A stretch of 64,000 bases of DNA from Escherichia phage vB_EcoM_G2285, in sequence record MK327933.1; one strand, given 5' to 3'. The notes beneath the pieces are model-generated. The model saw nothing but the letters and a program-made list of their open reading frames with translations, had not been told where the DNA came from and ran no database searches. Numbering within the stretch: the stretch's first letter is position 1; every line of letters starts with the position of its first letter. Shown here one piece after another: positions 13,948-41,205 of the stretch. The position numbers and the translations under genes are program-made.

Positions 13948-14418
13948 TTAATCATGTTTCCACACCCCATTGGTATTTAACCAAAGTCGCTGATTATCTG
14001 ATCCTCGCCACAGCTTTTTAGTCGGAAGATTTTTCTCATACTTCCCATCAATAATAACATCAACATATTTAAGCATTTCTAGCTGTTTAATATCTTCAAA
14101 CTTATATCCTGTCCACAACCAAATGCTTTTATTGGGATAAAGATTTTTTACTGTTTGAACAATGCAATGAATAACATCTCGGTTATCAGGATAGAGAGGG
14201 TCACCTCCGGTTATAGTCAATCCTTCTATATAATCATTATTCAAACATTCAATTAATTGTTCTAGTGTTTCACCAGTGAATGGAATACCATTTCTAGCAT
14301 TCCATGTTGATTTATTATAACACCCTTCACATTTATGCAAACAACCTGTAACGAAAAGAACGACCCTGCAACCAGGGCCATTCACAAAATCGCAAGGATA
14401 AAATCTATCATAATTCAT
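13948..14418 (-). CDS. nrdG: Anaerobic ribonucleotide reductase activating protein NrdG (radical SAM)
   Basis: 156 aa; cysteine cluster CDFVNGPGCRVVLFVTGCLHKCEGCYN; ATGA overlap with nrdD. Confidence 0.85.
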   Translation of the reverse strand: MNYDRFYPCDFVNGPGCRVVLFVTGCLHKCEGCYNKSTWNARNGIPFTGETLEQLIECLNNDYIEGLTITGGDPLYPDNRDVIHCIVQTVKNLYPNKSIWLWTGYKFEDIKQLEMLKYVDVIIDGKYEKNLPTKKLWRGSDNQRLWLNTNGVWKHD

Positions 14419-15746
14419 TGGTGTTTAACCCTATGCATTATTTCTTTATTTTTACCGAGATTAAATCCGCGTTCGTTCGGATTTCCCAAATAACCGCATG
14501 TTCTTCTTATGGTGTTCATCTTTTTAGGATCAGTTTCTCCGCAAACTGAACAAACAAATCCGTTTTCAGTAGGAGTCATTTCATGGGTACTTCCGCATGT
14601 AAAACATTTATCTACTGGCATATTAACACCAAAATAATCTAAATGTTGTGCAGCATAATCCCATACGGCCTCAAGACCTTTTAAGTTATTTTTCATATCA
14701 GGAAGTTCAACATAAGAAATGTGGCCACCTGTCGCAATGAAATGATATGGTGCTTCACGAGAAATCTTTTCAAACGGAGTAATATTTTCTTCTACTGAAA
14801 CATGGAAACTATTAGTGTACCAGCCTTTATCAGTGACATCCTTTACACTTCCATATTTTTCTGTATCAAGTTTACAGAAGCGATAACAAAGGTTTTCAGC
14901 AGGAGTCGAATATAAACTAAAAGCAAACCCAGTTCTTTCAGTCCACTGTTTAAGATGAGCATTCATTTTAGTTAAAATTTCCTGTCCAATATCACGACCG
15001 ACAAGAATATTCAATTCATGAATACCAATGTATCCTAGGGACACTGAACTTCTACCGTTTTTAAATAACTCAATTATGTCGTCATCAGGTTTAAGACGAA
15101 CCCCGAATGCACCTTCTTGGTAAAGAATAGGAGCAACAGTCGCTTTAACTCCTTTTAAGGAACTAATTCTACACATCAAAGCTTCAAAACACAAATCCAT
15201 TCGTTCATTGAATAATTCAACAAATTTCTGTTCATTGAACTGTGTTCCAATATAAGAATCTAACGCGATGCGAGGAAGATTCAATGTTACAACACCAAGA
15301 TTATTACGTCCATCAAGAATTTCATTACCAGTCGAATCTTTCCATACGCTCAAGAAACTACGGCAGCCCATTGGAGAAACTGGAACTGAAGAACCGGTAA
15401 TAGCTTTATTATTCTTAACCGAAATAATGTCAGGATACATTCTTTTGCTTGCACATTCTAACGCAAGTTGTTTAATATCATAGTTCGGATCATCTTTATA
15501 AAGATTAACACCTTCTTCAACAAACATAACAAGCTTAGGGAAAATAGGAGTTATCCCATCACGACCAAGACCTTTAATCCGATTTTTCAGAATTGCTTTC
15601 TGAATCATTCGTTCAGTCCAGTCAGTTCCAGTACCAAATGTAATTGTTACAAAAGGCGTTTGTCCATTTGAACTGAAAAGTGTATTTACTTCATCATTAT
15701 ATTCAGCATGAGTCGCAAATTCATGCTCGTTTATATGAAACAACAA
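14415..15746 (-). CDS. nrdD: Anaerobic ribonucleotide reductase NrdD, C-terminal part (exon 2; 5' boundary is ORF-based, not the true splice site)
   Basis: 443 aa ORF ending with the glycyl radical motif RRTCGYLG and a C-terminal Cys4 cluster (CFTCGS...CSVCGE). Confidence 0.8.
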   Translation of the reverse strand: MLFHINEHEFATHAEYNDEVNTLFSSNGQTPFVTITFGTGTDWTERMIQKAILKNRIKGLGRDGITPIFPKLVMFVEEGVNLYKDDPNYDIKQLALECASKRMYPDIISVKNNKAITGSSVPVSPMGCRSFLSVWKDSTGNEILDGRNNLGVVTLNLPRIALDSYIGTQFNEQKFVELFNERMDLCFEALMCRISSLKGVKATVAPILYQEGAFGVRLKPDDDIIELFKNGRSSVSLGYIGIHELNILVGRDIGQEILTKMNAHLKQWTERTGFAFSLYSTPAENLCYRFCKLDTEKYGSVKDVTDKGWYTNSFHVSVEENITPFEKISREAPYHFIATGGHISYVELPDMKNNLKGLEAVWDYAAQHLDYFGVNMPVDKCFTCGSTHEMTPTENGFVCSVCGETDPKKMNTIRRTCGYLGNPNERGFNLGKNKEIMHRVKHQ

Positions 15747-16491
15747 AATTTGGATAGTCCATAGATATGCAACGTTCTTTTATAGTGCTAGGATGAAAAT
15801 TTAGCGCTTTAGCTGCTTCTATATAAGACGTATACTTAATACCGTCAACAACCACATATTCAGGAACTTTATGAATAGTAGTCTTAATACTCAAAACAAG
15901 AGGATGAGTTTCGACTTCACTTTCAGTGCAATTTAAATATTCCGCTGCTTTTTTAAAACTTCTAAAAGTTTTATTTTTAAGCTTTATCGATACTTGTTTT
16001 TTACTTTTTCGACTATTGATATTATTTTGCACATGTTCCTTAGATCTTCCGTTTTTAGCATAATATTCAGCTACAGAAGATTTTATATTGTTTTTATGAG
16101 ATTCGGATAACACTTTACCCTTATGAGCATCTCTTAATTTTTGAATATGTTCTTCAGTATCCGGATGCTTATAAAACTTTTTACCGCCTATGGATTTATT
16201 TAAACATTTTTTGCTATAAAAATATTTACGTATGACCTCTTCTTCATGTTTTAATGCATCTTTATAACTATCAAATGTTTTTAAAATTATCCATTTAGTA
16301 GGTGTATCAGTTTTTAAGCGTTCATTTATATACTTAGATGACGTTGTGTAAGTTTTCCAGTTTGTGGGCTTGTTTTTAATTGTTCTAAATTTTTTATAAC
16401 CGATATAAATGTCGCCATTAGAAAACTTAACTAAGTATGTAAATGCGTCTTTATCTTTTATTTTAGTACAACGTCTTTTTATCCATTTCAT
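15721..16491 (-). CDS. Intron-encoded GIY-YIG homing endonuclease (I-TevII-like)
   Basis: 256 aa ORF inside the interruption of nrdD; N-terminal YLVKFSNGDIYIGYKK resembles the GIY-YIG motif; basic C-terminal region. Confidence 0.7.
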   Translation of the reverse strand: MKWIKRRCTKIKDKDAFTYLVKFSNGDIYIGYKKFRTIKNKPTNWKTYTTSSKYINERLKTDTPTKWIILKTFDSYKDALKHEEEVIRKYFYSKKCLNKSIGGKKFYKHPDTEEHIQKLRDAHKGKVLSESHKNNIKSSVAEYYAKNGRSKEHVQNNINSRKSKKQVSIKLKNKTFRSFKKAAEYLNCTESEVETHPLVLSIKTTIHKVPEYVVVDGIKYTSYIEAAKALNFHPSTIKERCISMDYPNFVVSYKRA

Positions 16492-16735
16492 TGTTTCACC
16501 TCGTATTCATAAGATAATCTTATTTATACAAGATGACTGCTGCATGTCGCCATGCAGATTAGACTATATCTTCATCTTTCGATGCCGGCCGTTTCGAATA
16601 GCATTAGCTTCTATTCTACACCGCTACATTCATCACGGTTAGTCGTTAGGCATTTAGTTCAAAAGAACATTTAGCACGGGATTGTCTACTAGAGAGGTTC
16701 CCCGTTTAGACCGGTTTTACATGAGCCTGAATTAA
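15740..16735 (-). mobile_element. Probable group I intron interrupting nrdD (boundaries approximate)
   Basis: About 1 kb separates the two nrdD reading-frame segments and contains the endonuclease ORF plus about 240 nt of structured non-coding sequence (16492-16731); arrangement as in the T4 nrdD intron. Confidence 0.55.
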
Positions 16736-17277
16736 ATTAACTCATACGCCTGGAATGCATCGTATACGTCTTTTTCTGTTTTAGATTGAGCATAATTCAA
16801 CGCATCAGCGATTTGCCATTTTTCTGCATCTTCAATATGTTTAGCATATGTGCGTTTAACATAAGGAGAAAGTACTTTATCTACATTCGCAAATGTAGTT
16901 CCGCCATACTGGTGTGAAGCAACTTGCGCGGTAATTTGTGCCATAATTGCAGTAGCAACACCGATTGATTTAGGAGTTTCAATCTGTGCATTACCTAGCT
17001 TAAATCCGTTTTCAAGCATTCCTTTTAAATCTACTAAACAACAATTAGTAAATGGAAGAGCAGGGGAATAATCAATATCGTGCACGTGAATAATTCCGCT
17101 TTCATGCGCTTTCATAATAAAAGACGGGACTATATTTTTGGCAATGTGTTTAGACACAATACCAGCCATAAGGTCCCGTTGAGTTGGAAAAACACGAGAA
17201 TCTTTATTAGCATTCTCGTTTAAAAGGTCTTTATTAGTTTTATGAATCAATCCTTCAATTTCTTTTTCAATTGTCAT
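16732..17277 (-). CDS. nrdD: Anaerobic ribonucleotide reductase NrdD, N-terminal part (exon 1; 3' boundary is ORF-based)
   Basis: 181 aa ORF MTIEKEIEGLIHKTNKDLL... running into a stop inside the putative intron. Confidence 0.7.
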   Translation of the reverse strand: MTIEKEIEGLIHKTNKDLLNENANKDSRVFPTQRDLMAGIVSKHIAKNIVPSFIMKAHESGIIHVHDIDYSPALPFTNCCLVDLKGMLENGFKLGNAQIETPKSIGVATAIMAQITAQVASHQYGGTTFANVDKVLSPYVKRTYAKHIEDAEKWQIADALNYAQSKTEKDVYDAFQAYELI

Positions 17278-17747
17278 TTTAAACTCTTTCTAAGCTGCTT
17301 CTTAAATGAAGCTATTAACTGTGTTTTGGTGTCAGATTCATTATATTCAAATCCTCTTTGAAGCATCTCAGCCATCATTTCCTCTTTTCCTAAACGAGAA
17401 AATTCCTTTGATTTATCTCCAACAAAATTAGGATGGATATTATTATCAGAATAATCTTGTTTCAAATAAGCAAGAAGAGATTCAAGCCATTCGAGGTAGT
17501 CGACATCACGACCTTTAAGACCAGAACGGTTGAACTTATGCTTCATTTGACCTTCTGCTGCGTTGCACAGATTACAGAGTAATCCACGAACTCTACCGGC
17601 TTTTGGCCCGTTTAATTCATGGTCGTGGTCAAGATGGTTACCTTGAACATCAGGGTCTAATTCACGGTGGCAAATAGGACACTTACCGTTCTGTGCATCA
17701 TAAAATTTTTGTTTTTCTTCTTTATATTTTGCGCCTGATAATAACAT
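17274..17747 (-). CDS. 49: Endonuclease VII (Holliday junction resolvase) gp49
   Basis: 157 aa; zinc/His-Cys box CPICHRELDPDVQGNHLDHDHELNGPKAGRVRGLLCNLCN. Confidence 0.9.
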   Translation of the reverse strand: MLLSGAKYKEEKQKFYDAQNGKCPICHRELDPDVQGNHLDHDHELNGPKAGRVRGLLCNLCNAAEGQMKHKFNRSGLKGRDVDYLEWLESLLAYLKQDYSDNNIHPNFVGDKSKEFSRLGKEEMMAEMLQRGFEYNESDTKTQLIASFKKQLRKSLK

Positions 17748-41052: not shown

Positions 41053-41124
41053 CTGGCGCACTTGGACTCGAACCAAGATAAAGGAGTTAACAGCTCCCCG
41101 TAATAACCTTTATACGATGCACCA
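41053..41124 (-). tRNA. tRNA-Asn (anticodon GUU), CCA not encoded
   Basis: Hand-folded cloverleaf: acceptor TGGTGCA/TGCGCCA (one G-U), D-loop AAAGGTTA, anticodon stem GGGAG/CTCCT with loop CTGTTAA, T-arm CTTGG-TTCGAGT-CCAAG. Confidence 0.6.
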
Positions 41125-41130
41125 TTTGTT

Positions 41131-41205
41131 TGGTGACCCTGGCTGGTTTCGATCCAGCTACCTATCAGTTATGAGCTGACAGCTCTCCCATTGAGCTACA
41201 GGGCC
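41131..41205 (-). tRNA. tRNA with CAU anticodon (Met, or Ile if C34 is modified), CCA encoded
   Basis: Hand-folded cloverleaf: acceptor GGCCCTG/CAGGGTC, D-stem GCTC/GAGC, anticodon stem GTCAG/CTGAT with loop CTCATAA, T-arm GCTGG-ATCGAAA-CCAGC, 3' ACCA. Confidence 0.6.

Follow-up and report, generated by a model that had tools for sequence, protein, structure and literature searches.

Evidence that nrdD of Escherichia phage vB_EcoM_G2285 is interrupted by a mobile group I intron allelic to that of T4 nrdD

Structure of the nrdD locus

The window analysed here is a stretch of 64,000 nucleotides (64 kb) from Escherichia phage vB_EcoM_G2285 (MK327933.1). Its minus strand carries open reading frames of 181 aa (16732..17277) and 443 aa (14415..15746), with a third, of 256 aa (15721..16491), between them, as given in a preliminary description of this DNA. 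The two outer ORFs cover the Pfam NRDD model PF13597 consecutively (profile positions 1-141, E 2e-40, and 145-562, E 7e-123). This supports the earlier view that they are two segments of nrdD. The limits of the ORFs overshoot the exons, whose true ends are at 16740 and 15694. The frame of exon 1 continues for 8 nt past 16740 into the intron before TAA at 16734..16732, and the stretch 15695..15746, which is in frame with exon 2, consists of intron sequence together with the last part of the endonuclease gene, at its 3′ end. Similarly, the interruption that had been placed at 15721..16735 is real, but its true limits are 16739..15695. It consists of a ribozyme part of 248 nt, an ORF of 771 nt and a tail of 26 nt. 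The features are collected in Table 1.

Table 1. Features of the nrdD locus, with positions in the 64,000-nt window (helices are predicted)
Feature	Position	Strand	Remarks
nrdD exon 1	16740..17277	-	538 nt; codons 1-179 and first base of Tyr180
P1 5′ strand	16745..16740	-	AUGAGU, last six bases of exon 1
Group I intron, subgroup IA2 type	15695..16739	-	1045 nt; Rfam match, T4 alignment, exon join
UAA in exon 1 frame	16732..16734	-	intron nt 6-8, 5′ of internal guide sequence
Internal guide sequence	16721..16731	-	sequence read; P1 kept in four nrdD introns
Catalytic core	16540..16714	-	Rfam, RNAalifold, five-intron pair comparison
P3	16714..16709 with 16590..16585	-	
td-identical stretch	16669..16710	-	42 nt, 100% identical to T4/RB3 td intron; P3 end, P4, P5, P6 start
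P4-P5-P6-P6a block	16705..16657	-	
P7	16644..16640 with 16566..16562	-	
P7.1	16639..16620	-	compensatory changes present
P7.2	16616..16596	-	compensatory changes present
P8	16584..16573	-	GAAA loop
J8/7	starts 16572	-	
P9	16557..16540	-	GCGA loop
P9.1 hairpin	16496..16536	-	-17.3 kcal/mol, z -4.9
T4 late-promoter motif	16521..16528	-	TATAAATA, within 5′ half of P9.1
Homing endonuclease gene	15721..16491	-	256 aa; GIY-YIG and NUMOD1; between P9.1 and P9.2
P9.2 hairpin	15705..15727	-	AGCAUGA / UCAUGCU, loop AUUUGCGAC
3′ terminal tail	15695..15704	-	GAAUAUAAUG; last base is omega-G, 15695
nrdD exon 2	14415..15694	-	1280 nt including stop codon; carries glycyl-radical domain

Excision of 16739..15695 gives a NrdD of 605 aa, in which 601 of the 605 residues are identical to T4 NrdD. 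The joined protein is colinear with the crystal structure 1H78 (residues 1-605 on 1-605). The break point lies within the codon for Tyr180, which is the T4 splice site, and the exon junction is uninterrupted in 623 of 694 phage records, which are intronless. It is also uninterrupted in RB3; this phage was considered as an intron carrier on a hint in an annotation note, and was rejected because its nrdD is intact and intronless. The ligated junction is expected to read ...GCGUAUGAGU joined to AUGAAGUAAAU..., and a spliced product across it to read ...CAGGCGTATGAGT joined to ATGAAGTAAATAC.... A possible 3′ splice site lying further upstream, next to CAUG at 15707, would lengthen the reading frame by four codons. 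It was set aside because the segment in question corresponds to the 3′ strand of P9.2 and the tail, which are conserved in the intron family.

The exons differ from those of T4 at 82 nucleotides. The differing codons comprise 76 synonymous and 4 non-synonymous changes, and the pattern is found in both exons. Judged from this sequence comparison, the restored NrdD frame is under strong purifying selection.

The ribozyme core

A covariance-model search of a 1.7-kb piece matched the group I intron family RF00028 at 16540..16775(-) over model positions 1-253; at 70.6 bits (E 1.9e-17), the match exceeds the gathering score of 50. The intron surfaced in Rfam solely when this piece was searched: scans of the whole window, in gathering and permissive modes, reported two tRNAs only.

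P1 is formed by AUGAGU at the end of exon 1 and GCUCAU (16726..16721), and U16740 contributes the U to the U.G pair that marks the 5′ splice site. The Rfam placement of P1 and P2, with P1 within exon 1, was rejected in favour of this pairing, which agrees with T4 and is kept in related introns. The splice-site U.G pair is kept in four of five aligned introns; the fifth, td, is misaligned in this region. For P10, a candidate is UUCA (16731..16728), which can pair with UGAA in exon 2, giving 4 bp compared to 3 bp in T4. Being short, P10 is weak evidence on its own.

RNAalifold, unaided, finds P1, P3-P6a, P7.1, P7.2, P8 and P9. When P7 was added and five introns were compared, 98.5% of cells were paired, with a compensatory change in 24 of 55 pairs in this sample of only five sequences. 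In a control in which the 3′ partner of every pair was slid by 1-3 columns, 32-41% were paired, and the observed values were not attained in any of 500 shuffles. P7 is invariant across the five introns and is therefore neutral as evidence of covariation. The additional helices P7.1 and P7.2, which separate P7 from the 3′ strand of P3, place the intron in subgroup IA2. On the sequence, the predicted ribozyme core is complete: besides P1 with its U.G pair, it has P3-P9 with the pseudoknot of P7, the extra helices P7.1 and P7.2, a short P10 and a G at its terminus.

The preliminary description allowed for a split gene with two NrdD polypeptides as an alternative. In such a case nrdD would be divided by a free-standing endonuclease gene, and the two polypeptides, made without splicing, would assemble into an active enzyme. 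Many public records do annotate two nrdD CDSs and a homing endonuclease, and phage ribonucleotide reductase genes that are split yet functional are known (PMC3653736), as has been reported for Aeromonas phage Aeh1, in which mobE divides nrdA. Against this, there is a complete group I ribozyme between the two parts, the break falls inside a codon and at the T4 splice site, and the homologous T4 intron self-splices, according to literature cited in PMC2988022. In the sequence as read, exon 2 has no ATG and no Shine-Dalgarno sequence, and its only possible start is a TTG within the endonuclease gene. We found no support for the split gene in the absence of a start codon and ribosome-binding site for exon 2, and consider its probability to be close to negligible.

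The homing endonuclease and its proposed control

The 256-aa ORF had been described as having a GIY-YIG-like N-terminus. In this ORF Pfam finds SegE_GIY-YIG (PF19835), marginally, with 26.6 bits where the cut-off is 25, and NUMOD1 at 25.3 bits against 22.8. The ORF falls in a PHROG homing-endonuclease family, and all 256 aa, the DNA-binding part included, are homologous to I-TevII (56% identity, E 1e-101). It has in common with I-TevII the FTY...YIG motif as well as the positions HEE and N98.

The Shine-Dalgarno sequence of the endonuclease gene, GAGGUGA (16502..16496), is sequestered in the predicted P9.1 hairpin. The T4 counterpart of P9.1 has a predicted fold of -15.3 kcal/mol. The late-promoter motif in P9.1 occurs in only 6 copies on the same strand in the 64 kb, and it is also annotated in the SA20RB record. 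The arrangement matches that in T4, where a late-promoter motif lies within the hairpin that hides the ribosome-binding site (PMC2988022).

The 3′ end of the intron

The 5′ strand of P9.2 contains UGA, the stop codon of the endonuclease gene. Equivalent hairpins, with differing stems, precede the tail in the T4 nrdD, Felixounavirus, Vequintavirus and td introns. The CU that ends the 3′ strand of P9.2 (15706..15705) forms, together with the tail, the sequence CUGAAYAYAWUG, which is conserved with the T4 nrdD and td introns. Duplex prediction gives a candidate pairing of L7.1 with the bases before the 3′ splice site, of 4 bp including one G.U, which is weaker than the clear pairing, with 5 Watson-Crick pairs, in T4. 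An additional, non-conserved pairing of the 3′ tail with the region of the guide sequence was also predicted.

Proposed splicing, expression and homing

The steps proposed here are modelled on established T4 biology. The pre-mRNA would splice itself, by guanosine attack after U16740 and exon ligation after G15695, and the spliced mRNA would encode a single NrdD of 605 aa. The 3′ splice site lies about 800 nt from the core, and P9.2 and the conserved tail may serve to bring it back. Ribosomes on exon 1 would halt at the UAA formed by intron nt 6-8. With its ribosome-binding site concealed in P9.1, the endonuclease is not expected to be made from early nrdD transcripts. Late transcripts would start at TATAAATA within P9.1, so that the 5′ arm of the hairpin is missing and the ribosome-binding site is free, and the endonuclease would then be translated late in infection. 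The endonuclease would cut the intronless nrdD of co-infecting phages, and repair would copy the intron in, which constitutes homing.

Comparison with known introns

Self-splicing RNA and intron homing are classically illustrated by the T4 nrdD intron and its endonuclease I-TevII. The preliminary description likened the layout to theirs, and this is upheld: the host gene and the exact insertion site are shared, and the two introns can be aligned along their whole length. They have an identical P1 (AUGAGU/GCUCAU), a stop codon in frame at intron nt 6-8, a matching set of helices with P7.1 and P7.2 among them, an identical L7.1 loop, and the late-promoter motif in a hairpin over the ribosome-binding site. 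In T4 the ORF likewise lies between P9.1 and P9.2, with its 3′ end overlapping P9.2, and the 3′ tail is shared. We conclude, with very high confidence, that nrdD of this Tequatrovirus harbours a mobile group I intron, of the IA2 type found in phages, and that the whole element is an allele of the T4 nrdD (sunY) intron. It is of an already known kind, a divergent version of the textbook intron of T4 nrdD, and adds little biologically.

The two introns also differ. The window intron has 1045 nt and that of T4 1033 nt, and their ribozyme cores are only 73% identical, with P3, P6a, P7.1, P7.2 and P8 rebuilt through compensatory changes. In the window P7.2 is 7 nt longer than in T4, P8 is shorter and has a GAAA loop, and P9.1 has one more inner hairpin. 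The endonucleases, of 256 aa here and 258 aa for I-TevII, are only 56% identical. By these sequence differences, the window intron is a distinct allele and not T4's own intron.

Two other kinds of phage intron were compared. The T4 td intron, which encodes I-TevI, belongs to the same IA2 phage family, has a similar 3′ tail (UGAACAUAAUG) and is identical over the 42-nt stretch in Table 1. It differs in its host gene (thymidylate synthase), in its long P2, in the position of its ORF, which is in the P6a loop rather than 3′ of P9.1, and in an L7.1 without the GAUGAAUGUA loop; overall core identity to the window intron is 60%. The nrdD introns of Vequintavirus (for example vB_EcoM_SYGMH1) and Felixounavirus (for example Salmonella phage Meda) interrupt the same gene family, with a near-identical guide, GCUCAU. 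Across P6'-P7-P7.1 they match the window intron at 98% identity, and they share with it the L7.1 loop, the kind of P9.2 hairpin and the 3′ tail. By contrast, they occupy a different nrdD site, between ...SPMG and CRSFL..., near the active-site cysteine, and they carry an HNH endonuclease ORF in the P6a loop; their overall core identity is 67-72%.

The window core is not nearest to T4 nrdD throughout (73% to T4 nrdD, 72% to Vequintavirus nrdD). By blocks, P4-P6 is 93% like td, and P7-P7.1 is 98% like Vequintavirus and Felixounavirus. Its insertion site and the endonuclease ORF downstream of P9.1 place the intron in the T4 nrdD lineage, and the core looks mosaic. Given the 42-nt identity with td, and a P7-P7.1 block held in common with introns at a different nrdD site in unrelated phage genera, it is conceivable, if somewhat less than an even chance, that the intron did not simply drift away from that of T4 nrdD but is a chimera, assembled as phage introns exchanged segments of their ribozymes. 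Such a patchwork core fits the idea of domain exchange among phage introns. If the chimera is real, the endonuclease, at only 56% identity to I-TevII, would have a different recognition or cleavage preference, and two intron alleles would be competing for one homing site in Tequatrovirus populations.

Distribution and conservation

About 43 public Tequatrovirus genomes carry an almost unaltered intron of the window type, which is absent from 623 records. Among the sequenced Tequatroviruses it is commoner than the T4 type. A search of 50,697 phage records turned up nothing intermediate between the window and T4 types. A search of IMG/VR with the endonuclease alignment added no diversity, as its sole locus was that of the T4-type phage G8. 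In the literature, we found no paper specifically describing the window-type allele. Its commonness relative to the T4 type and its patchwork core are of modest specialist interest. Records of the window type are usually annotated with two nrdD genes and a homing endonuclease; nrdD should be annotated as one spliced gene, rather than as two genes and a hypothetical protein as in most records of the allele.

One copy of the window type has a 566-nt deletion, and two have a frameshift. Judging by the sequences, the patchy presence and the decayed copies fit a mobile element. These copies also suggest another explanation, namely that the intron in phage vB_EcoM_G2285 is itself a relic which no longer splices, leaving nrdD as a pseudogene. 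Homing endonuclease genes of T-even introns do decay, T4 I-TevIII being one example. We regard a relic as very unlikely here: all of the core helices are intact, with differences from relatives that are compensatory, the intron is carried by about 43 genomes, and the core is 98-100% identical among the window-type records listed. The excess of synonymous over non-synonymous codon changes relative to T4 is not expected of a dead gene, and the endonuclease ORF is full length.

The interrupted nrdD gene

The preliminary description had nrdD interrupted by an ORF of the GIY-YIG type. The flanking ORFs match successive stretches of PF13597, the Pfam model for anaerobic ribonucleotide reductase (see table), the downstream one also carrying a glycyl-radical domain in Pfam, and the order nrdG, nrdD, endonuclease VII is that of T4; the interruption is therefore real. 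The Pfam matches of the middle ORF, at 26.6 bits for SegE_GIY-YIG (cut-off 25) and to NUMOD1, bear out its assignment.

Features of the nrdD region and closest relatives of the intron core blocks
Feature	Position	Strand	Remarks
nrdG	13948..14418		nrdD neighbour
3' nrdD ORF	14415..15746	-	443 aa; PF13597 profile positions 145-562 (Pfam)
Middle ORF	15721..16491	-	256 aa; SegE_GIY-YIG and NUMOD1 (Pfam)
5' nrdD ORF	16732..17277	-	181 aa; PF13597 profile positions 1-141 (Pfam)
Endonuclease VII gene	17274..17747		nrdD neighbour
nrdD exon 1	17277..16740	-	T4 junction transfer
Intron	16739..15695	-	1045 nt; T4 junction transfer
nrdD exon 2	15694..14415	-	T4 junction transfer
P1 and guide region			Closest to T4 nrdD, 87% identity
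P3-P6 block			Closest to td, 93% identity
P6'-P7-P7.1 block	16617-16656	-	Closest to Vequintavirus and Felixounavirus nrdD introns (comparison records L004 2501-3251, L005 2501-3227), 98% identity

The T4 annotation gives nrdD as two joined pieces over 2851 nt, implying an intron of 1033 nt with I-TevII inside. The window region aligns with that of T4 over its full length, and the T4 junctions were transferred through this alignment to give the splice sites. The likeness to the T4 intron that had been proposed is borne out by this alignment and by the position of the ORF, which lies downstream of helix P9 in both. When joined, the exons give 1818 nt encoding 605 aa, identical to T4 NrdD at 601/605 positions and aligning over residues 1-605 with 1-605 of its crystal structure, 1H78. 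A 400-nt query built from both exons showed the junction to be uninterrupted in 623 of the 694 matching phage records, including T2 and RB68; it is also contiguous in RB3, where nrdD is 1818 nt without interruption.

Comparison of the window nrdD with that of T4 shows 82 nucleotide differences. The codon changes comprise 76 synonymous and 4 non-synonymous ones, with the same pattern in both exons, which argues that the gene has stayed functional in both lineages and hence that the insert must be removed. The public records with this type of insert (L002, L010 and others) mostly carry two nrdD CDSs and a 'homing endonuclease', with no spliced gene. Such a split into two genes, translated without splicing into two NrdD polypeptides as the preliminary description had allowed, is unlikely, and so is a dead intron.

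Structure of the intron

A covariance-model search of 15400..17100 matched RF00028, the group I catalytic intron, at 16540..16775(-) with 70.6 bits (gathering score 50; E 1.9e-17), spanning the whole model. When the full 64 kb was scanned, neither the gathering nor the permissive mode of Rfam reported RF00028, and two tRNAs were the only hits; this is a filter effect and is no evidence against the intron. On sequence evidence, we take the insert in nrdD to be a group I intron, as first suggested. The motif AAGATATAGTC, covering P7 and its joining segment J8/7, is present once in the window, which makes a second intron of the same type elsewhere in it unlikely.

P1 is formed by the end of exon 1, AUGAGU, with GCUCAU (16726..16721), U16740 lying opposite G as a wobble pair. 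A candidate P10 joins UUCA (16731..16728) to UGAA in exon 2. Read on from exon 1, the frame ends at UAA at intron nt 6-8, as it does in T4. The ORF-less cores of five introns were aligned (window, T4 nrdD, T4 td, SYGMH1 nrdD from a Vequintavirus and Meda nrdD from a Felixounavirus), and RNAalifold found P1, P3, P4, P5, P6, P6a, P7.1, P7.2, P8 and P9. With P7 added as a pseudoknot, 98.5% of cells are in standard pairs, and changes on both sides are seen in 24 of the 55 pairs; none of 500 shuffles matched the observed pairing and covariation values, and sliding the 3' partner by 1-3 columns left only 32-41% paired. P3, P6a, P7.1, P7.2 and P8 are made of other bases in T4 nrdD than in the window. 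Since there are five sequences and P7 is invariant, the comparison supports the peripheral helices strongly and is neutral on P7.

P9.2 is a 7-bp hairpin (15727..15705) whose 5' strand is made up of the 7 nt that end the ORF, stop codon included, and it is directly followed by the tail GAAUAUAAUG. The four comparison introns have an equivalent hairpin, with a different stem, a loop containing GCGA, and UGAAYA..G after it at the 3' end. Michel and co-workers (Genes Dev, 1992) reportedly found that the T4 sunY (nrdD) core depends on a long-range pairing to bases immediately ahead of the remote 3' splice site. The T4 bases ACAUU, preceding the terminal G, form a perfect duplex with AAUGU of L7.1, the loop of P7.1. 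All four nrdD introns share an identical L7.1 sequence, GAUGAAUGUA, and the best equivalent pairing in the window has 4 bp, one of them G.U; for the window intron this step is uncertain. Separately, the P9.2 3' strand and tail (UCAUGCUGAAU, 15705-15715(-)) are complementary to the guide-sequence region at 16720-16732(-), with a predicted -10.1 kcal/mol for pairing with AUUCAG and CAUG; this complementarity is not conserved in T4.

The endonuclease and its proposed control

Over its full length the 256-aa ORF shares 56% identity with I-TevII (E 1e-101), and it falls in a PHROG homing-endonuclease family. By homology to T4, the intron is inferred to splice and its endonuclease to cleave. Just upstream of the ORF, a predicted hairpin (16536..16496, -17.3 kcal/mol, z -4.9) buries the Shine-Dalgarno sequence GAGGUGA; its T4 counterpart is predicted at -15.3 kcal/mol. 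The 5' half holds the T4 late-promoter motif TATAAATA (16528..16521), one of only 6 copies on the minus strand of the 64 kb. The same arrangement leaves early transcripts of T4 intron endonucleases untranslated, while late ones are translated (review PMC2988022), and translation here would similarly be blocked on early transcripts and permitted on late ones.

Origin and distribution

The aligned window core is 73% identical to T4 nrdD, 72% to Vequintavirus, 67% to Felixounavirus and 60% to td, and the similarity is uneven along the intron (see table). From the end of P3 through P4 and P5 to the start of P6, 42 consecutive bases (16710..16669(-)) have 100% identity with the td intron found in T4 and RB3. 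Over the wider P3-P6 block, the T4 nrdD intron agrees at only 34/46 aligned positions, and the stretch of 42 has the look of a patch of conversion between introns. The Vequintavirus and Felixounavirus introns occupy a different nrdD site (...SPMG/CRSFL...), and carry an HNH endonuclease ORF in the P6a loop, where td also has its ORF, unlike the window. The sequences can reasonably be read as the product of segment exchange between introns; the alternative is strong conservation of these parts.

A translated search of 50,697 phage records with the window endonuclease found two types only, with no intermediates: the window type (about 43 full-length copies, at least 95% amino-acid identity) and the T4 I-TevII type (about 25 copies, 56% identity). 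In the 40 window-type records listed, from Escherichia, Shigella, Salmonella and Proteus phages, the 1.3-kb region is 98.5-99.2% identical. The element is of a known kind, present in many public genomes and annotated there: the JK45 RefSeq note reads 'I-TevII homing endonuclease', and SA20RB has a rho-independent terminator annotated where the P9 hairpin is expected. In phage 215Ecol030PP (L008 1718-2196) this intron lacks 566 nt within the endonuclease ORF and is identical in the rest, and F1 and FN have a frameshifted copy of this ORF. The insertion site is TATGAAT/ATGAAG in intronless RB3 (L007 815-825) and TATGAGT in both intron alleles, and the synonymous G (GAG vs GAA) completes the P1 helix. 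Distribution, decayed copies and this G fit a mobile element spreading and decaying, as described for T-even introns.

In the window, nrdG directly follows nrdD with a 4-nt overlap (14415-14418). The HNH endonuclease gene mobC, which separates the two in T4, is lacking, and in SA20RB this position is taken by another homing endonuclease gene, of 840 nt. The two tRNA genes, Asn-GTT and Met-CAT, are the only ones in the window (41053-41205(-)), at a position occupied in T4 by a cluster of eight.
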